The notes under the pieces are model-generated. The model saw only the letters and a program-made list of their open reading frames with translations. It was not told the DNA's origin and ran no database searches. From a virus (taxonomy: Duplodnaviria > Caudoviricetes), in the IMG/VR virus record IMGVR_UViG_3300048819_000142, positions 1-64,000 of that record: 64,000 bases of DNA, one strand, 5' to 3'. This document shows, piece by piece, positions 26,906 through 64,000 of this stretch. How positions within the stretch are numbered: position 1 is the stretch's first letter; each line of letters starts with the position of its first letter. The translations under genes and the position numbers were made by a program.

Positions 26906-26920
26906 TTTAAGGAGAAGAAA

Positions 26921-27142
26921 ATGGCAGCTTACACAAGACTAACCACCGCAGCGTTCAACACACTGAACTCCTCGACCCTCGGCAGTCTGAAGCCGTATCA
27001 GATTCGTCAGGTTCAGGAGTATCTTGACCGCATCAATTGGGGCAAGGCTAATTCGAATGCAGGTCGCGGTTCTGATTCAAACGTCAGCAATCAGCCGACG
27101 CTGACTCAGATCATTACCCTTGCGGGTAGCAACAACGCGTAG
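26921..27142 (+). CDS. Small virion-associated hypothetical protein
   Basis: AGGAG RBS. Confidence 0.65.
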   Translation: MAAYTRLTTAAFNTLNSSTLGSLKPYQIRQVQEYLDRINWGKANSNAGRGSDSNVSNQPTLTQIITLAGSNNA

Positions 27143-27213
27143 AACATCGGCAAAATAGTCATTCACTATTTTGTTTTGACGTGCTACAATGAGAACTGGA
27201 ATCGAGGAGCATT

Positions 27214-27975
27214 GTGCTTAATAACCGTATGAACATGGGACCGCTTCGTGCGCCCGCTGGAGTTGCTGGCGGCGCCGGAGGAGGTGATCCAAACGCAGCT
27301 TTGACGATGGAAGCGGTCCTCGCAGAAGTGAACAAGGGTCTGGACGCCAAAATCGCCGGTCAGCTCCAGAAATACAAGGAGAGTACCGACGCGCAGTTTG
27401 CGCCCATCACGGCAAGTCTTGCGGGAATCACGGAGGCGCTCGGGAAGCTCACACAGAATCCGAATCCGAATCCGAATCCGGCAGGGGGCGGCAACAAGAT
27501 GTCACCCGAAGAGAACGTGCTCCTCAAAAATCTTCAGGACATCACGAAGACTCAACAGCAGGCAATCGAGAAGCTGACACGTGAGAAGCAGGAATCTGAC
27601 CAGAAGGCAGAGCGTTCGGACCGCCACTCGACCATCAAGGGCGCGCTGAACAACATGCACTTCATCAGTGACGTCGCGGCTCAGACGGCCTTTACGATCG
27701 TGGAACCGCACATCAAGCGTCAGGACGACGGCGGCTTGATCGGCGGTGTTCAGGGCGGCGATCTTTATCCGGTGGATGCTTTCGTCAAGGATTACTTGAT
27801 GAAGGAGCATTCGTATCTGCTTCGCGCTTCGGGAAGTTCGGGTTCGGGCGCGCCGGCAAATCCTGGTGTCCGCATGGGCGCCAAGGCCGACCTGAGCGAC
27901 ATCAAGGTCGGTATGAAGCCCGAAACTCGCGAAAGCATCGTGGCGTCGATCGGCGCTGCACTGGCGAGCGTTTAA
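27214..27975 (+). CDS. Capsid scaffolding protein
   Basis: Coiled coil, NP repeat, Gly/Ser C-terminal motif; directly upstream of the capsid gene. Confidence 0.75.
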   Translation: MLNNRMNMGPLRAPAGVAGGAGGGDPNAALTMEAVLAEVNKGLDAKIAGQLQKYKESTDAQFAPITASLAGITEALGKLTQNPNPNPNPAGGGNKMSPEENVLLKNLQDITKTQQQAIEKLTREKQESDQKAERSDRHSTIKGALNNMHFISDVAAQTAFTIVEPHIKRQDDGGLIGGVQGGDLYPVDAFVKDYLMKEHSYLLRASGSSGSGAPANPGVRMGAKADLSDIKVGMKPETRESIVASIGAALASV

Positions 27976-29859: not shown

Positions 29860-29938
29860 AGCGGAGTGGACTGGAGTCTGGTTCCAGCTCGGTCTCATAA
29901 GCCGACTCACGCGGGTTCAAATCCCGCCTCCGCAACCA
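29860..29938 (+). tRNA. tRNA-Met (CAT), initiator-like
   Basis: Acceptor GCGGAG/CTCCGC with 1:72 mismatch, anticodon arm TCGGT-CTCATAA-GCCGA, T-arm GCGGG-TTCAAAT-CCCGC, encoded CCA. Confidence 0.9.
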
Positions 29939-33120: not shown

Positions 33121-34410
33121 ATGCCGAATTATTCTTTTTCTCGCCTAGAGCGTGCGTACCTCCAGCAGCAGCCAACGTTTGGCACCATTCCGAACACAAC
33201 CGGCACTGCAAGTGTCGGTAACTCAAATGCGTGCCGGTTCATTCGCATGGAGTTACAGAACGAGGTTGCGCTCCTCGAGCGTCCCGATAAGACGGGAACG
33301 CGCTCAATGGAAGGTATGACCGGCGGCCGTAAGATGGGCCGCTGGAGCATCGAAATGTCGCTCACTGGGAATGGCACGCCGGGAACTGCTCCCGATTGCG
33401 ACCCCATTTTTACAGCAATGTTTGGCCAAACTGCAGCAGTCGGTTCTGGCACGACGTCAATCACGAGCTCAACGGACGCCACACCGATCGTTGTGGCGTG
33501 TTCCGGCGCGCACGGTATCACGTCCGGCGCGTTCGAAGTTGTGTCGCTTTCTGGGCATACCACCAACACGAATGCTAATGGCGTGTGGCTCGCATATGCG
33601 GGGGACACGACGCATCTTACCTTGGTCGGTTCGTCCGGCAACGGTAATGGCGCCGGTGCCAGTGGTACCGTGAGTCGAGTTAAGCTCACATACACATTCA
33701 TCGATGCTATCACGCAGTTTACGCTCTGGTCTTTCCGAACGCCATCGACCCTCGATCAGCGGGTCGGTAACACGTGCGTCGTGACGGAAGCGACATTCAA
33801 CTTCAATCAGGACGTCGCAACATGGCAGGCAAACGGCGATTGCTTCTGGGTCCTTCGAAGCAGCGACTTTGCAAACGCCGATGTTTATCAGCTAGGTGGT
33901 CTTGGCGCGTTCCCGACCGAGCCTTCTTCTCCGGTAACGAACGGTAGCATTATCCCGGGATTCACCGGCCGCTTCGTTGCATGGGAGTCCGTTGCCAAGG
34001 TCGGCGCCACAACGTTCGTCGCAAGTGCGGCTACGTTCCCGACAATTCGCAACGCAACCATTCGCGTGCAAACCAACAACTTGCTCGTTCGCGACACGTT
34101 CGGTAGCTACTACCCGACATTCACCGAGGGCGACGTGCGAAACATCACCCTATCGTTCAACATCTACGACGACGACAGCACCAACGTAAACACGCTCAAG
34201 TCGTGGGGTGACAGCAAGCTGCCCGTCGACTTCATCATCAACCTCGGCACGGTCTCGGGAAACATCTTTGTCTTCTGGATGAAGAACGTCTACCTCTCGT
34301 CCCATGTGCTCGGCGATGGCCAGCTTCGCTTCGATGCGGCCTACTCCGAGGCACGTGCGACCACCACCTCACTCTCGGTGCGCGATGAGTTCACACTCAT
34401 CGTCGCATAA
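33121..34410 (+). CDS. Major tail (tube) protein with inserted decoration domain
   Basis: Position before chaperone and TMP; T/S/G-rich; FCCH-like insert. Confidence 0.75.
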   Translation: MPNYSFSRLERAYLQQQPTFGTIPNTTGTASVGNSNACRFIRMELQNEVALLERPDKTGTRSMEGMTGGRKMGRWSIEMSLTGNGTPGTAPDCDPIFTAMFGQTAAVGSGTTSITSSTDATPIVVACSGAHGITSGAFEVVSLSGHTTNTNANGVWLAYAGDTTHLTLVGSSGNGNGAGASGTVSRVKLTYTFIDAITQFTLWSFRTPSTLDQRVGNTCVVTEATFNFNQDVATWQANGDCFWVLRSSDFANADVYQLGGLGAFPTEPSSPVTNGSIIPGFTGRFVAWESVAKVGATTFVASAATFPTIRNATIRVQTNNLLVRDTFGSYYPTFTEGDVRNITLSFNIYDDDSTNVNTLKSWGDSKLPVDFIINLGTVSGNIFVFWMKNVYLSSHVLGDGQLRFDAAYSEARATTTSLSVRDEFTLIVA

Positions 34411-34487: not shown

Positions 34488-34964
34488 ATGGCATATAAGC
34501 ACGAGACTCTTCGGCGCCACGAGTCTGTAGTATTTGAGGGCGTCGTATTTTTTCTTCACAAGATGACGGAAGGTCGACGGCTTGATCTTCGGTCGAAGAT
34601 TTCGGAACCCAATCGCCGGATCCGAGAGATACTGAAAGAGCAGGCGGCGATCGAAGGGCAGTCCGAGGAAACCAGGGATTCTGCTAAGTGGCTGGAACTT
34701 CAGGACGAGTTTGACGGCCTGATGCTGGAGAAGGTCAACCCAGCCTGGCTTACCTGGGGGCTGAAGCGGATCGATGGCCTCGAGGTCGAAGGCAAACCCC
34801 TGGGCGTCGAGGACTGGAAAGATTGGCCGTCCGCGCTGTTTGAAGAAGTGATCGTCGCGATCAAAGCCGAATCGGAGCTCAACGGCACAGAAAGAAAAAA
34901 CTCCGAATTGCCTACCACTTCTGGCGGACAGGTGGATATGAGTCAGAAATCTTTGACTGCGTAA
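34488..34964 (+). CDS. Tail assembly chaperone (gpG-like)
   Basis: Between tube and TMP; A AAA AAC slippery site at 34895-34901. Confidence 0.8.
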   Translation: MAYKHETLRRHESVVFEGVVFFLHKMTEGRRLDLRSKISEPNRRIREILKEQAAIEGQSEETRDSAKWLELQDEFDGLMLEKVNPAWLTWGLKRIDGLEVEGKPLGVEDWKDWPSALFEEVIVAIKAESELNGTERKNSELPTTSGGQVDMSQKSLTA

Positions 34965-35350
34965 CCTGCAAACGGAAGGGGTACTGGCAAAGGCGCAATT
35001 GCAGCTTATACTTCCCAAAAAGAATAGACCCGAAACGGGCAGTCTGCTGGGAAGCTGGGTATCAGGATAGACTTGGTCGACCGTTCTCGATCTCAGGCAC
35101 TGACACGAATCAATGCCCTGTCTCGCTCATATCAGCTCAGTCTACGGAGCTGGTACAAATTTTCGCACGAACCAAAGTAATGAAGGAGTTCGGTGCGTCT
35201 CCCTACGGTGGGGATCTCTCAAAATGGCCGTCCCGCATGGTAGACGCTTTCGTCATCCTCCAAGACGAGCACTCGCGAGTCGAGATGCTTCGAAACGTTC
35301 AAGAGAAGCAACCTCGGCAGCAACAACCCCAACAGCGACAAAGACGGTGA
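34898..35350 (+). CDS. -1 frameshift extension of the tail chaperone (gpGT-like)
   Basis: The -1 frame is open for about 150 codons from the slippery site to TGA at 35348-35350: KLRIAYHFWR...CVTC...C...CP...WP..MVDAF. Confidence 0.8.
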   Translation, partial: KLRIAYHFWRTGGYESEIFDCVTCKRKGYWQRRNCSLYFPKRIDPKRAVCWEAGYQDRLGRPFSISGTDTNQCPVSLISAQSTELVQIFARTKVMKEFGASPYGGDLSKWPSRMVDAFVILQDEHSRVEMLRNVQEKQPRQQQPQQRQRR

Positions 35351-35366
35351 CAACAGGAGAAAACCC

Positions 35367-38300
35367 TTGGCCCAGTTGTTTGACGACGAGGTACTAAGCG
35401 TAGTCCTGAAGTTCTCCAATCCCAATAAACGGGACATGGAGGACGCGGACAAGATTGCTACGAAGCTATCCATGGCACTTGACGGGGTCGTGCGCAAATC
35501 TGTATTTGCTGGCCGAGCTGTTGCAGACGTGCTGGAGGGTATCAAGCGGCTCGAGCCGACCTTGAAGTCAATGGAGAAGCGCGCTGGCACGATTGGTGCT
35601 AGCGCGGGCGCACTTAAGACCGCGCAGCAAATCCTTGCACGCTACACTCCTGCGCGGCTTGAGAAGCTGGCTGAAGTCCAAGCGTCGAAAATTGCTGAAA
35701 CTAGTGGCACGGCTTCCCTTCGTCGTCAACTTGAGAAGCATGGGGAGCTAATTAAGCGACTCGTTGCCACCCGGGAGGGCAGGTATAACAGGGCAACAGG
35801 CAATAGTCCAACAGGTCGCGGCCTGTTTATCGACACCGAATCTACAGGGTTGAATGCACTTAAGCATCAGATTACAGAATTAACTGCTACGCTGTTTACG
35901 TTCAATAAAGCTACGGGGGAAATCCTTAATCAGCAAGAGAGGACGTACCACGGTTTTCAGCAACTCGCATTCCAGTCACGCCACCAGTACATGCCTCAGG
36001 GCGTGACTCCCGCGCAGCTACAGAGCCAGGCCATATCTACTACCATGCTGCGTCGTCTGATGCAGCAGGCTGATTTTGTCGTAGCTCACAATGCGCCACA
36101 TGACAAGAAGTTTGTTGAACGACTTGTTCCTCAAGCTGCAGGTATGATGTGGCTCGACTCGATGCGAGGTATCCCTTGGCGCACGCTCGGTCATAGCTCG
36201 CGGGCCCAGCAGGATCTTCTCAGAGCGCACGGAATCAACCCAGGGCAAGCACACAGGGCAACGGACGATGTTAGGGCTGGCGTTAAATTGCTCAGTTCTC
36301 GTTCGCCTATCGGTGGTCCCACGTACATGAGTATGCTCTTGGGCAACCAGGGACCGCTCAACCAGTCTCAGCAATTGCTTGCGCAGATCAAGCACATGGC
36401 TGATGAAATTCGTAGTGACCTGTCGTCTCGTCTTGGTGAGGGCGGCGGTCGATACATGTCATCGACAGCTCGCTACAAATCCCTGGGAACCACAGCCTCT
36501 AGAGCTGCTGACGACGTGGCAGAGTTCTACACTCAGCATGTCATTGCTGCAATTGAGGGTGGCATTGACGCCAGGTCTCGGAGGCCTGCTCGAAGCACTG
36601 ATTACGGAATCAAGTTCGGATCTGGGCAAGCACCAGAGACAACCCCTGGCCTGTTGGGCCATTCAGCTATTAGCATTGACCGACGGCTTGGCGTGATTGA
36701 TCAGTTCCTACGGAACATGACTATCATGTCTGGCCCTGCAAGTTCTTCCCAGTTCATGGACCATTATGTTTTTCAGAGCAGGTCCCAGGAACGAATTCAG
36801 CAAGGTCGCGGTCGCGGTCGTCAGATCAAGTCAGATATTCGTTCTGGCGATGAAGTATCCCTTGCTACAATGCAAGGACTCAATACACGCTACGAGAACG
36901 AGCGACAGGGGATTCAGAGAGAAGATCCGATGAATGCCCTGTTGAATGAGCTTGATCGTCGTCAATCGGACAATCGTACACAGCTTGCTCAGCGTATGCT
37001 ATCTCAGCCGTGGGCTCAGCCACCTAAAAAGAGTGTATATATTGCTGGCCCAATGCGTGGTATACCAAACCTTAACTTTCCGGAGTTTGATAGGACAGAA
37101 GCTTTATGGCGTGGCAGAGGTTTCGGTGTAGTTAACCCCGCACAGTTGGATAGGGAGCATGGGTACATTCCTGTAGGCGGTCAGACTCATTTTGCGAATT
37201 TATCTATAGAGGAGGCAATGAGTAGGGATATCCCTGCTGTTACTGGGACGAGTGGTATTGCTTTGATGAGGGGATGGGAAAAGAGTCAAGGGGCCAAAAT
37301 GGAGCTCCAGCACGCAATCTCCCAAAGAAAAGAGATATACGACGCTGAATCAGGCAATCGGCTTCGGCTTAGGGATTTGCGAGCACTTGGCATGGAGAAT
37401 CTCTCCATGTCGATTCAGTCACGAATTCCTGTATCTTCAGTTAAAAATTTTTCTCCTACTATATTTCGCGATCGGGAAATTGCTACATTTATCGATCAAA
37501 ATAGTAAGAGTGCTTCTCCATCCTTGATAAGGCATGCTGCTCAGATGGCGTCACACGTCGGCCCCAACGACCCACGGTTCATGCAGCTTGCTTCCATTAT
37601 GTTTGAGGGGCAGCAAGTAGGTCGTCAGCTGGCGTCGTCTCGCGCTGTCCAGGCGCAAAAAGAAGCGATGGACCGTATAGCAGGTAACGTTGGTTCGAAG
37701 CCTCGGTCAGGTTTTCGCAACGTTATTGGTGAGGCGCTGCGCGGTTTAAGCGACGCTGGTCTTGCCACTGGAATGACTGCTGTTTCGCCATTCCTTTCTT
37801 CTGGCGGTATCGGCGGTGGGTCCTTTGGCACGTTTCTTAACTACTTTAGGAATAGGCGACGATCTGCTTCTTCAGGCGGAAGGACGACATCGTATGACGA
37901 GCGCGCTGAGGGCTACCTTCCAGAACCCACGACGCTACGTGGCTCAATGCGCAGGGATGCCTTGGAGCAGAAACTTGGCAAACTTCGAGATACTGTCGAA
38001 TCAACTACCCGTGGCTTCCAAACGTTCAGGGACGTCACAGCGCAGGCTAAGGCGAATGACGCTGCTCGTCGGTATAGTTCTCGCGACTATGCTATTACCT
38101 CAGGACTGAATTCAGCTCGTGGTTCGTTCGATGCGCAGCTTGCCAGGCTCGAGGGACGCAGGCTCCAGTCTCGAACTTCCACAAGTCGCCGACTTGGTGG
38201 TATTCAGGAGTCATTTGAAAGTCGGTCTTCAGCGCTTGGCTTCTCTGAGTTGGACGCCGAGCAGCAATACGAGTCTGCACTCGATTCACAGCGCAGAAAA

Positions 38301-41300
38301 ACAGCTCGCTTACGCAAATCGAAGGCGTATTCGAAGGGAAAACTCTCAGACGAAGATATTCAGGCAGGTCTTCAGGGTCCTGTGCGAAGCGCACAGATGC
38401 GCCTCATCAAAGCTGAATACCAGGCACGTGCATCCCAGCTTACTGATCCAGGGGAGATTGACTCGCTGCGTCGTCAAACTGCTGGAAGGTATGCTGTAGC
38501 CCGATATGGTCCTGGCAGCGGGCCTGAACTTGAGCAACTCAGGTCAGACTATGCCGAGCGAGTCCATGGCTTGCTTGGTGGTAGGACGCTTGCCCAGAGG
38601 GCGGAAGGTCGTGCAAGACAGGTTGGAGAGGATCAGGTTGCTCGCGAGCGAGAACTTGATCAGGCTGTTGATCAAATTCGTGCTCGTAGGGATTCAGCTG
38701 AAGCCAGTGCAAGTCAGAAGCGCTCTGATAATGCGTCAAGGTTTGGCGCTGAGGGCGTCAAGCTAGAGAGCGAAGTTGAGAAACGTCGGCTCGCAAGTCT
38801 CAAGAAGATTACTGATGCTGAAAAGAAGGCGCATGAGGCCCGTGTTCGATATCTCAAGACTGAGGACGCTGCAGGTGGAGGTGGCGGCGGAGGTGGTAGC
38901 ACGCATAGTGGGGGCACTCACGGAGGTGGAAGCGGCCGTTCAAATTTTGAAAGCCGCGATGCACTTGGGTTCGGTCTCGGCCTATCAACGCTCGCTTCCT
39001 ACGGTGTCGCGATTTGGAATGGTGTAAAGGAATCGGCTATCTATGCCGCCAACGTTGACGCGCTGAAGTTCTCTACTCAGGAAATTGCGAAGGTAAACGC
39101 CCTTGATGTTGGAGCTGTTATGGACAGCGTGAACAACATTAAGAAGCTGAACATGACCACGGAATCAGCGAATCAGGTTGTTCAGAGAATGATCTTCGCT
39201 CAACTTGACGTTGGCAAGGCTGGTCAGGTCGCGCAAGTCGCGCAAAATGTTTCCATCCTCTCTGGCCAAACTCCTGCTGAGGCTGTTGAACGTATCATTA
39301 CTGGTGTTTCAACTGGTTTGACTGTTACTCTGCACCGCATGGGACTTCCAGTTAGCATGTTGCAGGTTAACAGGCAGCTGTCGGCTGATCGCAAGGCTGA
39401 AGGCAAGAGTGGTCCAGCTAGCGAGGTTGAGAAGCGGCAAGCTTTGCTTAATGCCGTCATTCGTGAGGGAGCTAAGGCCAATGGCCTGTATGAGAAATCC
39501 CTGCTCACCGCTGGTGGACAGCTTAAGCTGTTTGAGCAGAACATGCAGGAATTACAGTATAGCGTTGGCAAGGAGTTTCTGCCTGAGTTCGGTCGGTTCA
39601 TCTCGCTCATGTCGTCGGGTGCCAAGTTCGTTGATGCCAACTCTGCATCTGTCGCAAAATTTGCTAGCGTGCTTGCCTCGTTGACGGCTGCGGCAAGTTC
39701 TGTTGGGACGCTCGCGTTGTTCCGATATCTCCTCGCATCCCCTGTCGTACCATGGTGGGCGAAGTTGATAGGTGCAGGTGTTGGAGTTGCGACATATTCT
39801 GCCCTAAACCAAGATGATGCTGTTGCGATGTCGAAGACTGCTAATGAGCAACTCGACGCACTCAAGGGAAAGATTGACTCGCTTAAGAAGGAGCGATCTT
39901 CACTGCAAGGGAGTAAAAATGATTCTCCCGAGTGGAAGAACGCAATGGACATCAACACGGAAGCTACTCGTTCTGCTTCTGAAGCTCAGGTGTCTATCAA
40001 CCAGGAACTGACAAAGAACCTGGCTGATGAGTACAATAAGCGAATTGCAGACATTGATAACTACATTGCAGCAATGGAAGGCAAGCAGGGGACGTGGGCC
40101 CAGATCATGGCAACGTTCAGGACAAGCCCAGAAAATTCTGCTGTGGGGGCTGTTGCACGCGATATTCCGATTCTTGGAAACACAGGCCCTGAGGACATCG
40201 AGGAGGCACGTCAACAGCGAGCAGGACTTGCTGGGCAGTTTGCTTCAGGCACGCGCGGTATTACTGCCGAGGACATCAAACGAGAAGCAGTTCGTCAAAG
40301 ACTTGAGAGGCTTCGCGTAGCCGACTTGTCCCCAAGTATTATCAATAAGGAGAAGCTCGCTGTTGCGAGTATGATCTCTGAGATGACTGATGCTGAAGGT
40401 CAGCTTAATAAGCTCGATGAAAAGTACAGCGAAGAAGGAACTGTTGGACTCAGGGCAAGGAAAGCCATGGGTTCTCCACGCCAGAAAGTTCTCCTTGATT
40501 ATGACGAACAGGTCGCCAAGGTAAATAAGCTCAGTGCATCGCTCACTGATTTGAAAAAGAATGCTGCAGACGGAGATGTCGGTGCGCAGACACAGTTAAA
40601 TGACGTCGCCAAGCAACTCGGCGGCGGCGACTTCATTCTTGGACACGAGAAAATCAATGACTTCCTTAGTCGCAAGGATGATGTTGTTGGTGCTGCTGCA
40701 GAGGACCGAGACATACAGCTTGGCAAGATCAATCGACAGAACAAGGCGCAAATTGCCCAGGTTCGTGAACAGATGCAGGTTGAACAGGTTCAATCTGCAG
40801 TGGTTCAGGGGAATTATTCTTCTGAGCGTGAAGCAATTCTGAAAACGTTCGACATTAAGCAGCAGACCGCTAAGAAGACCTTGGGCTTGCTCGAGGACGT
40901 AGATGCATATAATCGCCAAATTGCTCAGAATGAGACTGATCGCGATGTTGGGTTGCTACGTCTCGAAATTGAAAAGAAGCGGGCTCAACAGGATCGCGAT
41001 CAGAGGGTACTATCACATGGTGCAGATCTTAAAGCTCAAGACATACTTGATAGTCCCGGTGACGCCGAACAGGTCATTCGCTACGCCTACAGAACAAAGC
41101 TTGATGCGACTGCGTCTATCACTGATGAGAACAAGCGCCTCAATGATCAACTCGATTTGCTATTCGAGCTTGATGAAGCGTTACGAAAACTTTCCAAGGA
41201 CAAGAAAACGCTTGCTGCCGAAGGACGTATTTCCGAATTCCAGGACAACCAGCAGCTCGCGATGGAGATTGATCGGACGATCAGTGCTCAGGCTGGCAAA

Positions 41301-43367
41301 CGCCAGTCGACAACCCATCGCGCATTGGCTGAGATCGAGCGGACACGCGAGGGCGAAATTGCCATCGCGAACAAGACGTTCGATGAGAGACAGCCAATAA
41401 CAGCTGCGGTAGATCAGGCAGCACTTGCTCAACAGCGGGACCAGTCAATCCGTCAAGCCAATGTCAAGGCTGCCGTAGATAGCATTAAGACGGTTGAACA
41501 AGAGATTGATACCGCTCGAGAGCGGCTCGCCAAGACATTGGAGCAGAGGGGTTCTAATGTTCAAGAAGCAATGCAGTCAATGGCCATTTCGCAGAATGAG
41601 GAACTGGCTGCTGCTGAGAACATCCACCGAATTCGTCTCGAATACATTGAGGCAGAATACAAGGCAAGGGGTCAGACCTTAGAAGCCGAGGAGCAGAAGG
41701 AAGAAGAGATTCGTCAAGTTGAGATGGACAAGCTGAAGCAGATGCTTGATCTACGCAAGCAGCAAATGGAGGGTATCAGGAGTTTCAGCGAAGGGCTATT
41801 TAACACACTTGTAACTGACCATGCTCGTGGATTGCGCGACTTCATGATGGGTCAAGTTAAGGGCATTGGAGCAAAGGTTTTTGGTAACCTTGCTGTAGAC
41901 ACATTAAAGGGCGTTCACACCAATCTTCCAGGACTCGAGACTACAGACGCCCAGGGAAATAAGAAGCTGACCTTTCTCGGTCGAATGCTTAGCGGTACAT
42001 CCCTTGGCCGTAAGGTACCGACTGATCAGGATATCAATGCACAGATTAAGAAGGTGAATGAAGCAAACACGAAGGCGACTGACAAGAACACCGACGCCAT
42101 TGATAAGCTTACGGAAACACTCGAACAAATCCTTCAGAGCCTTGGTGTGACACCAGGGACCTCGCCCAGTTCCACTGGTGGAGCGAGTGGCGGCTTTAGG
42201 GGTATCCCCAGTGGCCACATGTTCAATCTCGGTCCACTCTTTGGCGGGTCTGGCAGTGGTAGTCCGTTTGCGTTTAATCCTGGTGGAAATTCGGCTACAC
42301 CATTTTCGCTACCATTACTTCCATCGCTTGGTTCAAGTGGCGTACGACCAGGCGCTGTTGACACTTCCATTGATTTCGGCGATGGTTCCGGACCAACTAA
42401 CAAGAGCACCACGTACTACGGGCTCGATCAGGCAGGTAACCCAGTTACCGGTGGTCCTGGCTCTGGTGTTGGGGTAAGTCAGACCACAATTCCATCAGCA
42501 GAACAGCCTGCTGGCGCCCCGAGTGGTAACGGTTCGGCTGCTCCTATTCCAAGCAAGAGCGACCCTCTTTCTGGTATTCCAAACCTTGGCAATGCTGTGT
42601 CTGGTGCGATGTCCGGACTCAAGAAACTGAATTCCAATGCTGGGACGTATGTTGCCGGCGGTCTGGAAGCATTGACTGGTGCGTATCAAGCTATCACGAA
42701 CTTTAGTAAGGCGGGAGTTCGTAGTAAGTCCTTCGGGGTTGCGGGAGCTCTAACAAGTGCTGCTGGAATTACGTCAATGATTCCGGGAGCTCAGGTAGCT
42801 ACTCCATTTCTTGAGCTTGGCGCACTTGGCGCTGACTTGTTTGGCTCCTTCTTCCAGGATCCTAAGCAAAAGCGATCAAATCAGATTGCCAACTACCTTG
42901 CCGCCAATGCCTATATGGCACCTGCCCAATTAGACGTCACGAGCACGCTACAAGGTAACTTAGCTGCTGAAGGAAAGGGTGGCACGGTTACTGACACGGG
43001 AATCACCGCAAACTCCATAAAGGTAACTGCACCCTCCATAGAAGTTATCAATCCCAATTCGTTTCTTAGTAGTATACTACCTTCCGGGAAACCAACTATA
43101 AATGGTTACCTTGGGCAGGGCCAGGGGACAATTTCTGCTGACGATTTTTCAGGTCAACAACTCACGTACGCCCAAATTCCAGGGCAGGTGTCGTATGCCG
43201 GGCTTCCGGGCGTGGCCAATAACCCCGTAAGCATCCATGTGTCTGCGATGGACTCACAGAGCTTCCTTGATAGATCTGCTGATATCACAGCTGCTGTCCA
43301 GAAAGAACTGTCACTTGGTAATGGAGTCGCTCAGCAGATGCAGAACTCAATATTCGGAACAGGATAG
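35367..43367 (+). CDS. Tape measure protein (2666 aa) with N-terminal DEDDh exonuclease and DUF4406/NDT-like domains
   Basis: Position after G/GT; helical Ala-rich body with TM segments; C-terminal IHVSAMDSQSF motif; IDTESTG/AHNAPHD/AHRATDD and VYIAGPM.G..N/NPA/GWEKSQGA.ME motifs. Confidence 0.9.
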   Translation: MAQLFDDEVLSVVLKFSNPNKRDMEDADKIATKLSMALDGVVRKSVFAGRAVADVLEGIKRLEPTLKSMEKRAGTIGASAGALKTAQQILARYTPARLEKLAEVQASKIAETSGTASLRRQLEKHGELIKRLVATREGRYNRATGNSPTGRGLFIDTESTGLNALKHQITELTATLFTFNKATGEILNQQERTYHGFQQLAFQSRHQYMPQGVTPAQLQSQAISTTMLRRLMQQADFVVAHNAPHDKKFVERLVPQAAGMMWLDSMRGIPWRTLGHSSRAQQDLLRAHGINPGQAHRATDDVRAGVKLLSSRSPIGGPTYMSMLLGNQGPLNQSQQLLAQIKHMADEIRSDLSSRLGEGGGRYMSSTARYKSLGTTASRAADDVAEFYTQHVIAAIEGGIDARSRRPARSTDYGIKFGSGQAPETTPGLLGHSAISIDRRLGVIDQFLRNMTIMSGPASSSQFMDHYVFQSRSQERIQQGRGRGRQIKSDIRSGDEVSLATMQGLNTRYENERQGIQREDPMNALLNELDRRQSDNRTQLAQRMLSQPWAQPPKKSVYIAGPMRGIPNLNFPEFDRTEALWRGRGFGVVNPAQLDREHGYIPVGGQTHFANLSIEEAMSRDIPAVTGTSGIALMRGWEKSQGAKMELQHAISQRKEIYDAESGNRLRLRDLRALGMENLSMSIQSRIPVSSVKNFSPTIFRDREIATFIDQNSKSASPSLIRHAAQMASHVGPNDPRFMQLASIMFEGQQVGRQLASSRAVQAQKEAMDRIAGNVGSKPRSGFRNVIGEALRGLSDAGLATGMTAVSPFLSSGGIGGGSFGTFLNYFRNRRRSASSGGRTTSYDERAEGYLPEPTTLRGSMRRDALEQKLGKLRDTVESTTRGFQTFRDVTAQAKANDAARRYSSRDYAITSGLNSARGSFDAQLARLEGRRLQSRTSTSRRLGGIQESFESRSSALGFSELDAEQQYESALDSQRRKTARLRKSKAYSKGKLSDEDIQAGLQGPVRSAQMRLIKAEYQARASQLTDPGEIDSLRRQTAGRYAVARYGPGSGPELEQLRSDYAERVHGLLGGRTLAQRAEGRARQVGEDQVARERELDQAVDQIRARRDSAEASASQKRSDNASRFGAEGVKLESEVEKRRLASLKKITDAEKKAHEARVRYLKTEDAAGGGGGGGGSTHSGGTHGGGSGRSNFESRDALGFGLGLSTLASYGVAIWNGVKESAIYAANVDALKFSTQEIAKVNALDVGAVMDSVNNIKKLNMTTESANQVVQRMIFAQLDVGKAGQVAQVAQNVSILSGQTPAEAVERIITGVSTGLTVTLHRMGLPVSMLQVNRQLSADRKAEGKSGPASEVEKRQALLNAVIREGAKANGLYEKSLLTAGGQLKLFEQNMQELQYSVGKEFLPEFGRFISLMSSGAKFVDANSASVAKFASVLASLTAAASSVGTLALFRYLLASPVVPWWAKLIGAGVGVATYSALNQDDAVAMSKTANEQLDALKGKIDSLKKERSSLQGSKNDSPEWKNAMDINTEATRSASEAQVSINQELTKNLADEYNKRIADIDNYIAAMEGKQGTWAQIMATFRTSPENSAVGAVARDIPILGNTGPEDIEEARQQRAGLAGQFASGTRGITAEDIKREAVRQRLERLRVADLSPSIINKEKLAVASMISEMTDAEGQLNKLDEKYSEEGTVGLRARKAMGSPRQKVLLDYDEQVAKVNKLSASLTDLKKNAADGDVGAQTQLNDVAKQLGGGDFILGHEKINDFLSRKDDVVGAAAEDRDIQLGKINRQNKAQIAQVREQMQVEQVQSAVVQGNYSSEREAILKTFDIKQQTAKKTLGLLEDVDAYNRQIAQNETDRDVGLLRLEIEKKRAQQDRDQRVLSHGADLKAQDILDSPGDAEQVIRYAYRTKLDATASITDENKRLNDQLDLLFELDEALRKLSKDKKTLAAEGRISEFQDNQQLAMEIDRTISAQAGKRQSTTHRALAEIERTREGEIAIANKTFDERQPITAAVDQAALAQQRDQSIRQANVKAAVDSIKTVEQEIDTARERLAKTLEQRGSNVQEAMQSMAISQNEELAAAENIHRIRLEYIEAEYKARGQTLEAEEQKEEEIRQVEMDKLKQMLDLRKQQMEGIRSFSEGLFNTLVTDHARGLRDFMMGQVKGIGAKVFGNLAVDTLKGVHTNLPGLETTDAQGNKKLTFLGRMLSGTSLGRKVPTDQDINAQIKKVNEANTKATDKNTDAIDKLTETLEQILQSLGVTPGTSPSSTGGASGGFRGIPSGHMFNLGPLFGGSGSGSPFAFNPGGNSATPFSLPLLPSLGSSGVRPGAVDTSIDFGDGSGPTNKSTTYYGLDQAGNPVTGGPGSGVGVSQTTIPSAEQPAGAPSGNGSAAPIPSKSDPLSGIPNLGNAVSGAMSGLKKLNSNAGTYVAGGLEALTGAYQAITNFSKAGVRSKSFGVAGALTSAAGITSMIPGAQVATPFLELGALGADLFGSFFQDPKQKRSNQIANYLAANAYMAPAQLDVTSTLQGNLAAEGKGGTVTDTGITANSIKVTAPSIEVINPNSFLSSILPSGKPTINGYLGQGQGTISADDFSGQQLTYAQIPGQVSYAGLPGVANNPVSIHVSAMDSQSFLDRSADITAAVQKELSLGNGVAQQMQNSIFGTG

Positions 43368-43369
43368 TC

Positions 43370-43801
43370 ATGGCGTCTGAACTTACCTTCCCACTTCTTT
43401 CTTCGGGAGCAATGCGAGTTCTTCAATCTCCATTGAAGGATAACGCCATTGCTATGTACCCTTCGACGCTTGCGTCGAGTTTCAATACTCGGGTAATCAA
43501 GTTCCTGAATGATACGGAGCAGCGCTTTCTTGTTAATGATAAGTTGTTTAGCTGCACGCTGCAGTACCATGGCGTTAACGGTTACGACATGGCAATACTC
43601 CGCGCTTTCTTTAACGCGATGGATGGCATGCTTATTGACCCGACACTTGAGCACTCCTTCTCTATTACGATTGACGGCAGTACGTATGATTACTGTGGTT
43701 TTGGGCAAGATGAGCTTGATGTTGAGGTTGGAAGGGGCGAGACCTTTTCTTTTGAATTGAAGATCATTCAGGTAGCGCCTAATAGCGCAACAGGATCGTA
43801 A
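43370..43801 (+). CDS. Distal tail protein-like (DUF2460-like)
   Basis: YP.....F.T.V..F....EQR...L..FF....G....F pattern. Confidence 0.65.
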   Translation: MASELTFPLLSSGAMRVLQSPLKDNAIAMYPSTLASSFNTRVIKFLNDTEQRFLVNDKLFSCTLQYHGVNGYDMAILRAFFNAMDGMLIDPTLEHSFSITIDGSTYDYCGFGQDELDVEVGRGETFSFELKIIQVAPNSATGS

Positions 43802-43802
43802 T

Positions 43803-44666
43803 ATGCCAACGTATTTTCCGCAGATCAATTCGAACATGATCATCACGCAGCTGCCATACGCCGCTGGCCTGGGATTTGACACCGTTGTCCAGGATGTTGA
43901 GACGGGCATGCGGTGGAGTTTTTCCCGGCGAGCGAACGTGGATCTGCCAGAGGATTATGCACAGCTTCCTCTTGGGAAGTTCAAGGTGAACTACTCCTGT
44001 ATTACTGACGCGGAGGTAGCCACGCTTAAGACCTTTTTTGAGTCTCAGTATGGTCGTTACGGAGAATTTAGGCTACTTGACCCAAGCGGCAACCTTATTC
44101 CGTACTCGGAGGATTTCACCGCGTTACAATGGGATAAGACCAATGGCATCTCAATCGCTGGCAGTACAACAGATCCCTTCGGTGGCAACCTCGCCACGCG
44201 CTTGTCAGCGGCACCAGGCAACAGTTTCATCTTGTCGATCTTCGGTCCTGCTGACGGCGGGCTTAACGGTTTTGTTGTTTGCGCGTCAATGTGGGTTAAG
44301 GCTGAGAGTGTCAATCAGAACCTTTTCATAGGTTTTGTGGATTCGGGTTTTTCCAGGACTGACGCTGAAGTATATATGGTTCCAATGGGCAGCTGGAAGA
44401 GGATCTCCCATACTGCAACACTCTGGGACAATAACTACTTCAGGGTTATCATCGGGGGAGATGGCACGTGGGACGCATCAGTAATCGACGTGTTTGGCGT
44501 CCAGGTCGCTCCTACCAAGGGTGAGGGTGCTTACGTCAGATCGCCCGACAACTATGGCTACCATGAGTATGTGAGGTTCGACACTGACTCATTTCAGCGG
44601 CAAGCGATCGGACCCAACCAAAATGCGCTGCAGCTTCCCATGTTCGAGTACAACGTTCCCTCCTAA
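43803..44666 (+). CDS. Distal tail protein-like with carbohydrate-binding-like insertion
   Basis: L..FF....G.Y..F...DP..NL..YSEDF; VRFD.D. Confidence 0.65.
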   Translation: MPTYFPQINSNMIITQLPYAAGLGFDTVVQDVETGMRWSFSRRANVDLPEDYAQLPLGKFKVNYSCITDAEVATLKTFFESQYGRYGEFRLLDPSGNLIPYSEDFTALQWDKTNGISIAGSTTDPFGGNLATRLSAAPGNSFILSIFGPADGGLNGFVVCASMWVKAESVNQNLFIGFVDSGFSRTDAEVYMVPMGSWKRISHTATLWDNNYFRVIIGGDGTWDASVIDVFGVQVAPTKGEGAYVRSPDNYGYHEYVRFDTDSFQRQAIGPNQNALQLPMFEYNVPS

Positions 44667-44674
44667 GGATCAAG

Positions 44675-47600
44675 ATGTCTATCGGATCAATCTACGACGC
44701 TAAGGAACTCAGGCTCACATATCAGCCGCTGCTGCTATGCGAGTTTGAATTTCCCAATGGTCAGTTCCTTCGCGTGTCGACACACCCCTTGTCACAAAGG
44801 TACAAGGGTTCGCCGACAGCTGGATCATACGAGTACCAAGGGTATGAGTGGGTTCCCCGAATTGTTAATCAGGACATTGGCGCAACGCAGGCAATGTCTG
44901 ATTTTGGCTTCGACATTCCTCCGCAGATTACCGTGGTTCTTGCTGACCCAGACAAGACAATGTACCTCACGTATGAGAATACGTTGGGATTCAAGGGGGC
45001 AATCCTCAAGGTTTACGCAGCGATGTGGGATGCTGGCAACACAGCAACTGGATCATTCAACAACGATATTCCGATTGTTAAGTTTATTGGCACATGCAGC
45101 GCTTCATCCTTTGATGAGAAAACGCTGACAGTTACTGCCACCAGTCTGCTGAACATGACTCAGCAGCAAATGCCTCCTATTCGCATCCAACCACTATGCG
45201 CGTGGAACTTCCCACCAGATGAAGACGCCCAGCTTGACGGACTCAACAACCCAGACTCCCCCTACTACCAGTGTGGCTATTCATATTCGGTGGGCGGTGT
45301 GGGCAACGCCCAATCAGGCACTTCGGCATTTACCTCTTGTCCACTTAGTAGGGCCGCTTGCGTTCTTCGCCTTGGTAACTCTAGCGGGTCTAACCCCATC
45401 ATGGCAGATAATGCTGGCCACGAAACGGGAAGATTTGGCGGCTATGACTACATGCCGATCCAGAACAATGGTCTGCAGCGGTCGTACTTAACTGGTCAGT
45501 GGGACCTGATCATCAATGCCACTAACGAGGCAAAGTACGGGGACTACATTCCTATCTGCTACGGAACGACGTGGGTACAGCCAGAGGTCATGGGCGTGTA
45601 CGGTGATGGTAACTATACCAGATTCGAGAACCTGCTATGTTTCGGCAAAGTTCAGGAGATCATCACCAACGTCGTAGCCGGAGTCGTTGTTGCCCAGTAC
45701 TCTGCAGGGTCTGCAAGACCTATTAGTAGCCCCAACTACACTAGTAAGTACACTGATAACAACTGGGTCCCGCTGAACAACGGCAGTCGCAACGGACAAA
45801 CTAATAACAACATCGGTTGGAAGAATGCCGGCGATCCTTATGGCAGCGTGTCGGCGATTTTTACTCAGGTGTTATCTTCACTCTCCTCGCCGTCGAGCAT
45901 TCCCCAGATTCAGACTTTGCTTAATGCAGGACAAATCTTCGTTGCAACGGGCACTGTTGGCTGTGACGATTACGTTCAGACGTATTCTTATACCTCCAAC
46001 CCTGCCTGGATCTTGCTTGATATCCTTGTACAAGCTAATTGGAGATACACCGACGTCGACATTCAATCATTCATTGACGCGGCGGCTGTGTGCGATGAGC
46101 AGATCTACTTTAATCGACTCGACGGCACGTACTCAAATGTATACAACGAAGTAGGCAGTTCCGAATATAGGCGCTTCTCTGTTGGTTTTACTGTCAAGCA
46201 ACGCACCTCGATCGGCGAGGTTATTCGCGGTGTCCGCAATGCAATGCGAGCAATGCTGTTCTTCGACTTCAATACTGGTAAGCTAAAGATCCAGATTAAG
46301 TCAACAATCGGTGCACAGCAGCCAAACCCAATCACTGGGTCGAACTACAATACTGCAGTGACGTCCGTTTCCCCCGCTGGAGACGAGATCAACGGTTATG
46401 TTGCGTATCACTTTGACGAGAACAGCATTCGTAAGACTGACGACAATCGGTCAACCCTTCGGCTATATCAGCGACAATTTCAGGAAACTCCCAACAAGGT
46501 AACGTCATACTTCTTCGATCGCGAAAACCAGTACAGCCAGGATATCTCGACTATCATAGATGTTGAGGACGTCAATCGTATTGGTTCGGAGATCGCTGGT
46601 ACGTTTAACCTGCTTGGTCCGCAAACCTACGACCACATGAACCGCGTCACGGCCACGTGGTTCGCTGAAAACTACCGTGGTAATCCTCGACTCGATTACG
46701 AGGGATCGTTTATCGGTGACACAGGCGGAACTATCATGGCTGAGCTTGAAACCTCGGTGAAAGCTCTTCATTTGATGGTTGGCCAGATCGTGCTGCTCTC
46801 TGATTTTCAGACTGCGCTCACTAAGCAACCTTTCCGCGTAATGAAGATTCAGCCATCACAAAACTTTGAGACGGCAAAGATCACTCTGCAGTGGCACAAT
46901 GATAACTGGTATCAAGACACGTTTGGGCAAGGAGCCAACCAGCCAATCTACAAGAACACGATGAACGCCGTTGACCGTCCTCCGTATCCATTGCGCGCTG
47001 GATACTGGGCGGTTGCTTCCAGTCCGTACTATGACCCGACCGAGTACTTCTACCACCTTGCCCAGTTATACGGGCACTCTGACAATCCTGACGCAATCTA
47101 CCCGTCACAGCTGCTGATGCAGACATTTCTTCCTCCTAATTCGTTCACGTCGATTCCGAGGATGCCTAAGATGCAGGTCACTGGTACGGCCGCTGTTAGC
47201 GGTAGTTTTCCAGCAAGTGCCTCCTTTTACTGCTCCGTTGCGTCGACCTCGACTACTGCTGTGTTTACTACCGCCTCGTTCGCCAACGCCATCCCCCTGT
47301 CAGCACTGTCTAATATCTCATCCGTCTTCCTTCCCCCGGGATATAATATGCCGGAATTCAGGGTGCAATCGTGGCCTGATGCCCCAACTGGTTACGCCGT
47401 ATTCGCGGGTGAATCACCGGAGACGATGACGTTGCAAGATACAGGTACGGGCACGCCTGCCGGAATCAGCCTTGCGAGTTCGTTTAAGGTAGGAGCTGTT
47501 GGACCTCCTGATATTGCCTATAACGCCCTGCGGTTTAGGACTAGGTCTGTTGCTCTTAGCGGTATTTGTGAACTAACTTTCTTGCCAACAGCGTCCTATT

Positions 47601-48955
47601 CTAGCGGTACCACCGCGTTGGCGATGGCGATGTATGACGGCGTATCATTTGCTACGAACTCATTAGTTGGTAGGGAAGTATCTTTCATCGGGGGCGAGGA
47701 TAACATCACAGGGAATGGCGGGGTTAGCGGTGGCGATGTTATCATGGATTTTACGATTGTAGCAAACGACGGCAACACAATGCACGTCATTGATCCTGAG
47801 CCTGATGACTTTCTTGACGGAACCCTACTAGTTGAAAATATGCTTGCCGGTACGTACGCTAATACATATGGACCCACAACCTGGACCATTCGTATGAAAC
47901 CGACGTATGGCAGCGACGACAATGGAAACTACTTTGACGATTCCTTGCTCGTTAATCCGATGGCGCAGATCACTCCTGGGTGTGTAGTTACTGACGCAAC
48001 TAACACCTCCCCCATCACTATTACAGTTGATGACACTACTAACATCTTTAATGGTAACGTTATTGTTCTACAGGGAGTAAAGGGCAATACTGCAGCTAAT
48101 GGTCGATGGACGCTTGGCAGTGTCAGCGGCAACACTGCCCAGCTCGTTGGGTCTACAGGGAACGGAGCATTCTCTGGTAACGGCATCCTCTTTCAGCAGA
48201 CGTACGGACCGCTCTCTGGCAATAACATGGGTGCGTTCATATTCGCTGGGACTGGTAGAAATACCTTTGTTCCGATCTCTGCTTTCAGTGGGACCCGTGC
48301 ATACATTCAGGGGGACTGGCCGGGTGGAGTTACGCCTGATAGTACATCGCGAATCATCTTGCTGAATATGGACTATCTCACCGACCAGGCGACAACTCCG
48401 CTTGCGATTAAATTCTTTGGTCAGATGGGAGTGTTCTACATAGATGCTTCGTCATATCCCAAGAATCAGTCAGTGTTGTTCCAAGTTGCAAAGCAGTCCA
48501 TTGACAATGTGACGCTGAGTTCTCCAGTCCTTGATCAATATAGGGAACTGTACATATCCAACCGCTTCCTGTTCGATGGCGCGCTCGTTATGAACGTGCA
48601 GGGTACCTTGGCCATTGGTAACAACCAAGGCCAGCCCATACAGACTAGCCTTAACTCCATTCCAGTGACGATCGTACTTCAGATGGGAACTGCTGCAGAT
48701 GCACCAGTATCTGTAGACATTAACTGCGGCGGGGTGACTATTGCCTCCATAACAATTCTTACCGGAGATCTTATTGCTGAGGGCAATGTTTACTTGCAAG
48801 CTTATACTAGTGGTGTATCCCAATCGCAGGTGAGCCTTTTCCCTCCATGGTCTAGGCTGATGGGCGGGCGACCAATAACGTTGGATATAACTTCTGTTGG
48901 GTCGACTGCTCCTGGAGCAGATCTTACGGCTACTATATACTTTATTTCTGAATAA
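44675..48955 (+). CDS. Tail tip / baseplate hub-central fibre protein
   Basis: C.W.F...CGY...C...C; PICYGT; SNPAWILLD.L...D.QSF..AA..CD; fibre-like C-terminus. Confidence 0.8.
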   Translation: MSIGSIYDAKELRLTYQPLLLCEFEFPNGQFLRVSTHPLSQRYKGSPTAGSYEYQGYEWVPRIVNQDIGATQAMSDFGFDIPPQITVVLADPDKTMYLTYENTLGFKGAILKVYAAMWDAGNTATGSFNNDIPIVKFIGTCSASSFDEKTLTVTATSLLNMTQQQMPPIRIQPLCAWNFPPDEDAQLDGLNNPDSPYYQCGYSYSVGGVGNAQSGTSAFTSCPLSRAACVLRLGNSSGSNPIMADNAGHETGRFGGYDYMPIQNNGLQRSYLTGQWDLIINATNEAKYGDYIPICYGTTWVQPEVMGVYGDGNYTRFENLLCFGKVQEIITNVVAGVVVAQYSAGSARPISSPNYTSKYTDNNWVPLNNGSRNGQTNNNIGWKNAGDPYGSVSAIFTQVLSSLSSPSSIPQIQTLLNAGQIFVATGTVGCDDYVQTYSYTSNPAWILLDILVQANWRYTDVDIQSFIDAAAVCDEQIYFNRLDGTYSNVYNEVGSSEYRRFSVGFTVKQRTSIGEVIRGVRNAMRAMLFFDFNTGKLKIQIKSTIGAQQPNPITGSNYNTAVTSVSPAGDEINGYVAYHFDENSIRKTDDNRSTLRLYQRQFQETPNKVTSYFFDRENQYSQDISTIIDVEDVNRIGSEIAGTFNLLGPQTYDHMNRVTATWFAENYRGNPRLDYEGSFIGDTGGTIMAELETSVKALHLMVGQIVLLSDFQTALTKQPFRVMKIQPSQNFETAKITLQWHNDNWYQDTFGQGANQPIYKNTMNAVDRPPYPLRAGYWAVASSPYYDPTEYFYHLAQLYGHSDNPDAIYPSQLLMQTFLPPNSFTSIPRMPKMQVTGTAAVSGSFPASASFYCSVASTSTTAVFTTASFANAIPLSALSNISSVFLPPGYNMPEFRVQSWPDAPTGYAVFAGESPETMTLQDTGTGTPAGISLASSFKVGAVGPPDIAYNALRFRTRSVALSGICELTFLPTASYSSGTTALAMAMYDGVSFATNSLVGREVSFIGGEDNITGNGGVSGGDVIMDFTIVANDGNTMHVIDPEPDDFLDGTLLVENMLAGTYANTYGPTTWTIRMKPTYGSDDNGNYFDDSLLVNPMAQITPGCVVTDATNTSPITITVDDTTNIFNGNVIVLQGVKGNTAANGRWTLGSVSGNTAQLVGSTGNGAFSGNGILFQQTYGPLSGNNMGAFIFAGTGRNTFVPISAFSGTRAYIQGDWPGGVTPDSTSRIILLNMDYLTDQATTPLAIKFFGQMGVFYIDASSYPKNQSVLFQVAKQSIDNVTLSSPVLDQYRELYISNRFLFDGALVMNVQGTLAIGNNQGQPIQTSLNSIPVTIVLQMGTAADAPVSVDINCGGVTIASITILTGDLIAEGNVYLQAYTSGVSQSQVSLFPPWSRLMGGRPITLDITSVGSTAPGADLTATIYFISE

Positions 48956-63590: not shown

Positions 63591-64000
63591 TTACCTTACT
63601 CCACTCGAAGCTAAGACGATGGTCTTCCAAGCGGGAACTTGGTCGATGCTAATGTCCTGCACCTGCTCCCAAGTCCTGTGGTCAGCTATCATTCCCGATC
63701 TCGTCGGGAGTAGCAACGACGTCTTCGTCCATAGCAGCTTAGCTTCCGGTTGCGAGTACTCCTCGAGGAACACTATACGACAGCAGGAGGTATGCAACAA
63801 CTCCTTGACACAGGTGACGCAACAGCTTGTCGTTGTGTAACACGTGTGGATTCTCATCCTGTCGGTACAGTGCGCCAAGGCGTTCTGCTCCGCGTGGTTT
63901 GCCCAGCAAGAATCGAGGCTCGTCCCAGACGGCGCATTAGCACCAGGACACTTGGCGTTCTCATTATCCCTGCAATGATCCCACTTCGGTGGGACCCCGT
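63591..64000 (-). CDS. dCMP deaminase (5' part outside the window)
   Basis: ...GVPP..DHC...CP...C.ANHAEQNAL...Y.T.SCC.TC.K motifs. Confidence 0.85.
   Translation of the reverse strand, partial: GVPPKWDHCRDNENAKCPGANAPSGTSLDSCWANHAEQNALAHCTDRMRIHTCYTTTSCCVTCVKELLHTSCCRIVFLEEYSQPEAKLLWTKTSLLLPTRSGMIADHRTWEQVQDISIDQVPAWKTIVLASSGVR

Follow-up and report, generated by a model that had tools for sequence, protein, structure and literature searches.

An uncultured peat phage (IMG/VR record IMGVR_UViG_3300048819_000142; Caudoviricetes) encodes a giant protein, hereafter P0001, in whose N-terminal part lie two domains with enzyme folds. The DNA studied, hereafter the window, comprises the initial 64 kb of this 116,843-bp virus record, which is rated complete. 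The P0001 gene (35367..43367, + strand) specifies 2666 aa from a TTG start with AGGAG 4 nt upstream, and its homologues align with residue 1 onward. One of the two domains is predicted to be a DEDDh 3'-5' exonuclease and the other belongs to the family DUF4406. Two database searches returned 22 large relatives of P0001 (including the query; 2264–3089 aa) from different samples. Comparison among them shows both domains to be dispensable, exchangeable modules.

Gene context and protein anatomy strongly support P0001 as a genuine tail tape measure protein. Directly 5' of its gene lies a 158-aa G-like tail assembly chaperone gene (34488..34964, +), with 176–185-aa homologues at the same place in seven related loci. 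This gene contains, in frame, the slippery heptamer A_AAA_AAC for a -1 programmed frameshift (34895..34901, +), which is present in 8/8 loci examined. Read in the -1 frame, the extension that supplies the T part of the G/GT-like chaperone is 149 codons long (34900..35350, +), leaving 17 nt between its end and the giant gene; in the seven related loci, the -1 frame stays open for 145–163 codons after the heptamer and likewise ends just before the giant gene. A G/GT chaperone with a -1 frameshift is the classic arrangement preceding tape measure genes. This frameshift chaperone pair, together with the long helices and a hydrophobic pair in P0001 itself, bears out an initial annotation of the DNA that had called P0001 a tape measure protein. 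No tape measure family in Pfam or PHROGs matched the protein, which, given how diverse tape measures are, does not exclude membership; the assignment rests on context and anatomy. A profile of the body against the Protein Data Bank (PDB) gave coiled-coil noise only. The relative P0012 carries a glucosaminidase at aa 2540–2679, in the C-terminal part of its tape measure, and enzymes of the glucosaminidase type are the usual kind that tape measures carry.

Terminase, portal, scaffold and major head genes lie at 21–29 kb of the window, and the replication module is on the strand opposite to the head and tail genes. Directly 5' of the chaperone gene, a 429-aa protein (33121..34410, +) is presumed from its position to be the major tail (tube) protein; a family search with it gave no match, and a 427–432-aa gene is kept at this place in all related loci. 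Downstream of the tape measure gene follows a conserved 143-aa gene (43370..43801, +), also without a match in a family search, which has 110–141-aa counterparts in most related loci and is replaced by a 251-aa gene in locus L006. Next come a 287-aa distal-tail (Dit)-like protein (43803..44666, +), with a weak DUF2460 match (E 2.8e-4, below cut-off) that is faintly recorded for its homologues in L005, L007 and L012 as well, and a 1426-aa tail hub or host-specificity-like protein (44675..48955, +), whose Phage-tail_3 match is weak (E 0.007, below cut-off). In relatives, genes for 1278–1753 aa occupy the hub-like place.

The enzyme domains and their scaffold

The exonuclease domain spans aa 147–331 (35805..36359, +), with D156, E158, D246, H296 and D301 as its DEDDh residues. 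It matches PHROG 192 (E 1e-15) and positions 43–225 of 307 in the NCBIfam model NF006615, '3'-5' exonuclease' (E 2.4e-32; 111.9 bits vs a cut-off of 207). The Pfam family RNase_T (PF00929) scores 15.6 bits in P0001, below its 24-bit cut-off, which the relatives P0004 and P0009 exceed (31.1 and 28.6 bits). By sequence, the domain also matched 2p1j, the exonuclease domain of PolC, and each of the three Exo motifs (DxE, D, Hx4D) is aligned. An AlphaFold (AF2) model of the N-terminal part, built on a 60-sequence alignment, has a predicted local distance difference test score (pLDDT) >90 across the domain. In VIA-align, this model reaches Z 18.0 to the exonuclease domain of S. aureus DinG (root-mean-square deviation, rmsd, 2.6; 166 aligned), and Z 17.1 and 16.5 to those of PolC and E. 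coli epsilon. It further matches TREX1, ExoX, RNase T and Cap18, and a Foldseek match (E 1e-6) agrees with the Z-score matches. By profile and model, aa 147–331 are a DEDDh-fold exonuclease domain, predicted to be active and not a full member of NF006615.

This domain is the best-conserved block of P0001, with identities of 0.70–0.81 vs about 0.4–0.5 in most other parts. The catalytic D, E, D, H and D are intact in 17 of the 19 domain-bearing relatives, at overall identities of 26–66%. P0012 has Glu as the third catalytic residue, and the P0044 domain has decayed, with DxE changed to SxA and the domain truncated. Free-standing relatives of the exonuclease (35–42% identity) are 200–370-aa proteins of bacteria and prophages. 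No paper was found on the subfamily, which goes under the Conserved Domain Database (CDD) name PRK09182. One free-standing relative, the 242-aa P0026, is encoded in L018–L020 between a CI-like repressor (helix-turn-helix plus peptidase S24) and a prophage integrase, a place typical of lysogen-protecting accessory genes.

Could the exonuclease be a proofreading subunit of the replisome that merely happens to be encoded within a tail gene? It is the sole RNase_T-type domain in the genome, Pfam DNA_pol_A_exo1 has no match there, and JGI names two relatives 'DNA polymerase III epsilon'. However, the phage has a family A DNA polymerase (PolA; 693 aa; 61355..63436, −), whose closest PDB entry is DpoZ of vibriophage phiVC8 (7pbk, E 1e-29). 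PolA aligns with DpoZ from its residue 52, over a region that presumably includes the DpoZ exonuclease region, and therefore probably proofreads by itself. Moreover, lineages without the tape-measure exonuclease exist, and a late structural protein is an improbable part of a replisome. We regard the proofreading explanation as scarcely credible. The likeness of PolA to DpoZ had also raised the idea of a Z-genome (2-aminoadenine), which we dropped because the genome lacks PurZ (PF00709).

The second domain, a DUF4406 cassette with a short tail, spans aa 551–700 (37017..37466, +) and bears YIAGPM at 558, NPA at 590, RD at 620 and Glu646 within GWEKSQGAKME. Pfam DUF4406 (PF14359) matches with 57.2 bits vs a cut-off of 22 (E 2.3e-15; model positions 2–89 of 91), and with 61.6 bits in a six-frame search of the genome; PHROG 355, 'nucleoside 2-deoxyribosyltransferase', matches with E 5e-21. 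The model of residues 547–673 (pLDDT >90) reaches Z 11.6 to 1T1J (rmsd 3.2, 114 aligned) and Z 9.8 to the 2-deoxyribosyltransferase 6EVS. Its structure matches in BFVD are phage proteins of the DUF4406 and nucleoside deoxyribosyltransferase (NDT) kind.

The motifs YxxGPM, NP(A), (R)D and GWxxSxGxxxE are invariant across 14 cassette and free-standing members of DUF4406. A profile of these 14 has weak PDB matches, to the CMP N-glycosidase MilB (4jen, E 0.006) and to NDTs (E 0.02–0.03); the single sequence had no match in the PDB, and only the profile reached these families. In the profile alignment, Glu646 falls on the Glu of GxxxxxGxxxE in CMP N-glycosidase and NDTs, a Glu that is the catalytic nucleophile of both. 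On these profiles and the model, aa 551–700 are a predicted member of the nucleoside deoxyribosyltransferase / nucleotide N-glycosidase fold that has kept the Glu at the catalytic position. In free-standing proteins, DUF4406 often occurs as a fusion with a dATP/dGTP diphosphohydrolase N-terminal domain, which points to nucleotide substrates. In other long proteins (<=2000 aa), DUF4406 was found only in PF19905 and PF18909 fusions and in no other tape measure family, a negative that is weak evidence.

Both assignments had been made in the initial annotation from motifs, and they have held up. IDTESTG, VAHNAPHD, AHRATDD, VYIAGPMRG, NPA and GWEKSQGAKME are all present, each in its place, and the family matches and the AlphaFold folds (the Z 18.0 and Z 11.6 superpositions) agree with DEDDh and DUF4406. 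The retained Glu of the NDT superfamily that it pointed to is Glu646, aligned by a profile whose E-values are weak.

The same conservation bears on whether the two domains are enzymes at all. They could be structural relics without catalysis, acting as plugs, DNA-end holders or chaperone-binding modules. Such relics would fit the RNase_T score below cut-off and the fact that P0044 still retains a decayed copy. Yet the five catalytic residues persist in nearly all domain-bearing relatives across wide divergence, the exonuclease is more conserved than any other block, and the DUF4406 motifs are invariant down to the Glu at the catalytic position. We consider a relic very unlikely.

Around the enzymes, the modelled parts of P0001 are largely helical. 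Residues 1–145 (35367..35801, +) form a conserved helical domain in the AF2 model, with ~65–70% identity among close relatives, and are retained even in P0017, which is without the exonuclease. Residues 332–550 (36360..37016, +), modelled as a conserved helical region with disordered loops, end in the junction motif SQPWA and are present in all relatives, even those without either enzyme. Residues 701–1168 (37467..38870, +) are by composition an Arg-rich, net-positive helical region. The AF2 model of aa 694–1203 is all-helical (mean pLDDT 80), and two of its helices, 127 and 94 residues long, precede the linker; it contains no hidden globular enzyme, and the segment has no family match. An Atlas search with this segment gave scores <=0.85 and no family, and a PDB profile search gave noise only.

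A flexible, Gly-rich linker follows at aa 1169–1193 (38871..38945, +; pLDDT <40), and the Gly run AAGGGGGGGGSTHSGGTHGGGSG is at aa 1166–1190 (about 38862–38936). Its Gly/Arg/Ser-rich composition is kept in 11/11 aligned relatives, while its sequence varies. The N-terminal ~1190 aa as a whole are Arg-rich and net positive, and the composition shifts past the linker. Beyond it lies the tape measure body (aa 1194–2666; 38946..43364, +), which includes a stretch rich in Gly, Ser and Pro and is conserved at its C-terminal end. A hydrophobic pair at aa ~1433–1480 (39663..39806, +), a putative membrane hairpin, is the sole Kyte-Doolittle window >1.5 in P0001 and corresponds to the transmembrane segments that the initial annotation had placed past the linker.

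That annotation had treated everything before the Gly linker as an extension preceding the helical body. The linker is where it was said to be, but aa ~850–1170 in front of it are themselves long, tape-like helices, so that globular cargo is confined to about aa 147–700. The N-terminal helices, the helical middle, the Arg-rich helices and the Gly linker form a conserved scaffold that carries two dispensable, exchangeable modules.

The fusion is real and no assembly artefact. Contigs of two peat-metagenome runs, from which this DNA may itself derive, span 35000–39400 without an indel, and a further run, an unlikely source, holds identical pieces that bridge exonuclease and cassette (35746–37155), cassette and downstream region (37142–37744), and linker and body (38604–39400). 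Permafrost, lake and freshwater runs, whose word shares were small, were left out of any judgement on habitat. The reading frame is open throughout, with no stop or frameshift between the domains and the tape measure. The fusion is also kept in more than 20 relatives from different samples, including ones as diverged as 25–40% identity.

A real fusion could still leave the enzymes undelivered. The extension might act late in the producing cell, where it could salvage nucleotides or, through its helical parts, contribute to assembly or length control. Alternatively, it might be removed during assembly by a cut, for instance at the Gly linker, or stay outside the tail. A conserved flexible linker between extension and body speaks for such a fate, and folded domains fit the tube lumen badly. 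Some tape measures are proteolytically processed, lambda gpH among them. Contigs from a metatranscriptome library match the region, which is no proof of transcription or of its timing. Set against these points, fusing nucleotide enzymes to a late structural protein just to discard them has no evident benefit, and the fusion has been retained through the divergence given above. No internal start with a ribosome-binding site was found near the linker, and the N-terminal enzyme fragment of the Thermus phage P23-45 tape measure was found in virions. On balance we think it rather improbable that the enzymes stay behind.

Exchange of modules among relatives

In the 10 closest relatives, the N-terminal 554 aa are 58–66% identical to the query vs 34–58% for the body. 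DUF4406 is present in only 4 of the 22 large relatives (P0001, P0004, P0007 and P0012); in the others, the conserved SQPWA(K/R) motif is followed immediately by the block conserved after it. P0012 and P0001 share 65% identity in the cassette but 25–36% in the remainder of the protein, and a free-standing 121-aa gene is 66% identical to the P0001 cassette. P0024 has a different enzyme at the same place. Its aa 519–736, between the N-terminal block and the body, include a dCMP-deaminase-type domain (aa 563–675; Pfam PF00383, E 3e-13; ComEB-like by NCBIfam), and its locus has the same synteny and the same frameshift site. Most relatives have neither DUF4406 nor another enzyme there. These comparisons identify DUF4406 as a cassette in a swap slot after SQPWA, with clean boundaries and exchanged between backbones.

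The exonuclease also comes and goes. In P0017, residues 1–125 join the equivalent of 330–552 directly, and the domain is absent from P0120 as well. Since the exonuclease can be lost or decay and DUF4406 is mostly absent, both modules are dispensable for tail assembly, like accessory genes of conflict. Variable N-terminal cargo among tape measure homologues, which the initial annotation had suggested looking for, thus takes the form of both presence or absence and replacement of modules.

The fused architecture was met in these relatives and not in the other collections searched. Cultured phages gave no DNA match; at the protein level they matched in the two enzyme domains alone, which separate genes of those phages encode. 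A scan of IMG/VR with the N-terminal 554 aa found no relative beyond the window's own record, and species genomes yielded free-standing exonuclease relatives only, with no fused form. Shorter homologues of the body without the extension were not found among proteins <=1465 aa, which is weak evidence because that search was limited by shared words.

Other features of these genomes stand apart from the tape measure. A tRNA-Met (CAT) gene (window 29860–29938, +) sits inside the structural module, between head and tail genes. Located 5' of the terminase gene and apart from the tail module, a gene for a 417-aa protein (window 14517–15770, +) matches several PHROG tail-fibre families, some annotated as collagen-like. 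A nucleotide-metabolism cluster runs from window 63591–64000 on to genome position 66659 (−). It includes a free-standing dCMP deaminase, a 316-aa PHROG 5889 protein, a thymidylate kinase and a diverged thymidylate-synthase-like protein (57 bits), which could alternatively be a hydroxymethylase. In the related locus L005, a SNF2-family helicase gene downstream of the tail module (26536–27635, −) has intein-splicing and HNH_3 Pfam matches, which suggests that it contains an intein.

Possible functions of the extension

We tentatively propose, as a reading somewhat short of probable, that the extension is a modular enzyme carrier whose enzymes are delivered into the cell. Within the tape measure, the extension would occupy the end nearest the head, close to the end of the DNA that leads. 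It would exit the tail last and, after the envelope has been opened by the tape measure, reach the cytoplasm, in analogy with what has been proposed for the N-terminal RNA polymerase of the P23-45 tape measure. In the cytoplasm, nucleic acids met by the exonuclease would have their 3' ends trimmed, with release of 5'-mononucleotides. Mononucleotides would also be the substrates of the slot enzyme, which would cleave the N-glycosidic bond in the case of P0001 and deaminate dCMP in that of P0024. As a pair, the enzymes would serve accessory host takeover or counter-defence before any phage gene expression.

Several observations favour this proposal. Both families of slot enzyme, relatives of dNMP/NMP N-glycosidases and dCMP deaminase, take mononucleotides, which are the products that the exonuclease would yield. 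The P23-45 tape measure, with its active N-terminal polymerase, is a precedent. It is this coherence, combined with the dispensability and exchange of the modules, that suggests accessory takeover or counter-defence. The free exonuclease relatives in prophage lysogeny modules point in the same direction.

Other observations weigh against it. Its main weakness is one of quantity: there are few tape measure copies per virion, so that degradation of bulk host DNA or of the nucleotide pool is quantitatively doubtful. The tail-tube lumen leaves little room for folded domains of ~20 kDa. The phage encodes its own free-standing dCMP deaminase, thymidylate-synthase-like protein and dTMP kinase, and so does not need a virion-borne enzyme for nucleotide metabolism. 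The RNase_T score of the exonuclease lies below the family cut-off, and the papers searched hold only incidental mentions of DUF4406 and no characterised member. Finally, we infer from genes and analogy that the N-terminal ~1190 aa are incorporated into the virion and enter the cell, as we do the substrates of the enzymes and their purpose.

The small number of enzyme copies would be less of an obstacle if the exonuclease acted on the phage's own DNA. It might resect the 3' ends of the entering genome, with the slot enzyme as a secondary helper; resection would expose complementary 5' tails for circularisation, or hinder host nucleases that depend on ends. A few enzymes against two DNA ends is a fitting stoichiometry, and the tape measure topology argued for P23-45 places the N-terminus beside the DNA end. 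The flanking aa 400–1200, Arg-rich and net positive, could bind DNA, and the same repeat array stands at both ends of the record. What speaks against resection is that the domain is absent or decayed in three lineages with the same tail module and hence is not essential for genome entry, that neither DUF4406 nor a dCMP deaminase has an obvious role in end processing, and that the pattern of cassette exchange resembles that of accessory genes. End resection thus seems to us unlikely.

As to the record ends themselves, the start (window 1–100) consists of tandem copies of the 18-mer CGTCACGTCATTGCCGAG, and the first 30 bases recur at ~116345, about 500 bp before the end. Two explanations fit the repeats, a terminal array and wrap-around of the assembly.

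The proposal of a delivered enzyme carrier can be widened, on more doubtful ground. The N-terminus may be a general injection platform with a plug-in slot, through which phages exchange nucleotide-directed enzymes; placed in advance where the DNA enters, these would disarm nucleotide-based or injection-stage immunity before expression begins. DUF4406 enzymes of N-glycosidase-like type, dCMP-deaminase-like enzymes and possibly others would be loaded in the slot, with targets such as signalling nucleotides or defence nucleic acids. If this is true, the platform is a hitherto undescribed virion-borne route of counter-defence in long-tailed phages.

Delivery by itself would already matter. It would give long-tailed phages a means of acting on host nucleic acids or nucleotides at time zero, which bears on escape from immunity at or just after injection. 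One such immunity is SNIPE, a membrane nuclease that associates with tape measures (bioRxiv 10.1101/2025.11.03.685801). P0001 would also give DUF4406, a widespread phage domain, a testable context.

Comparison with known systems

Tape measures are usually viewed as rulers and channel formers with at most cell-wall hydrolases, and P23-45 is one published cytoplasmic case. Its tape measure gp96, shared by the Thermus phages P74-26, G20c and TSP4, carries a virion RNA polymerase as a fusion (Chaban et al. 2024, PMC10770324). This polymerase, which is active, makes up the N-terminal ~1100 residues; the fragment was detected in virions, and its site of action, the authors propose, is the pore through which the DNA enters (PMC10770324). 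The initial annotation had stated that tape measure fusions are mainly peptidoglycan hydrolases; such fusions are known, but the gp96 polymerase fusion goes beyond them. Its further suggestion of an undescribed system holds for the enzyme set and the swap slot of P0001, which were in no paper found, and not for the principle, since a tape-measure-fused cytoplasmic enzyme has already been published. In particular, we found no paper on phage tape measure fusions to an exonuclease, to DUF4406 or to a deaminase.

P0001 resembles gp96 in plan: both are giant tape measures in which an N-terminal nucleic-acid enzyme precedes membrane segments and the ruler. They differ in the enzyme: gp96 has an RNA polymerase of the two-barrel type, with a DFDGD motif, and P0001 an exonuclease plus a variable slot. 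There is no sequence relationship between the two, and activity and virion presence have been shown for gp96, whereas P0001 is known from genes. P0001 is no member of the gp96-type polymerase fusions and has in common with them the design principle alone. A hidden RNA polymerase was considered separately and rejected, as neither P0001 nor 10 relatives contain [DN]xDGD and no polymerase family matches.

Tape measures with hydrolases offer a second comparison. Pb2 of T5 is a tape measure with peptidoglycan-hydrolase motifs or domains. So is the tape measure of mycobacteriophage TM4 (Piuri & Hatfull 2006, as cited in PMC13277306). As in P0001, enzymatic modules are embedded in these proteins and used at infection, and the relative P0012 has its glucosaminidase. 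These hydrolases, however, act on the cell wall, outside the cytoplasm, while the folds of the P0001 modules are ones that act on nucleic acids and nucleotides. The P0012 hydrolase is C-terminal, whereas the P0001 modules are N-terminal.

The pairing of activities recalls the pre-early logic of T5, in which a nuclease-linked function and an enzyme that disposes of deoxymononucleotides come into play ahead of the expression of most of the genome. The presumed pre-early host-shutdown genes of T5-like phages include those for A1, A2 and a 5'-deoxyribonucleotidase (PMC4319617). The exonuclease and slot enzyme of P0001 would be a protein-borne analogue. The T5 functions are, in contrast, genes on the first-entering DNA segment and not domains of a virion protein, and the families are unrelated.

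Contractile injection systems have tape-measure-like effectors, Sle1/Tme, and in one study a cytidine deaminase-like domain from another bacterium's protein was experimentally joined to Sle1 (PMC13277306). These are likewise ejected proteins derived from tape measures, with a modular architecture. Unlike P0001, they carry the added module at the C-terminus, belong to bacterial nanomachines rather than phages, and have no exonuclease or DUF4406.

The free phage genes for DUF4406/NDT proteins and for NF006615-type exonucleases encode the same domain families as P0001. They are separate genes in nucleotide-metabolism or lysogeny modules, whereas the P0001 domains lie inside a structural protein. 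Among all these systems, P23-45 remains the closest in concept. The P0001 family extends the idea to other enzymes, a predicted 3'-5' exonuclease and predicted nucleotide-modifying domains, and adds comparative evidence of modular, exchanged cargo in the form of an insertion point, presence and absence, replacement, and the identity of cassettes on diverged backbones. The swap slot is, to us, the most interesting element of the family.

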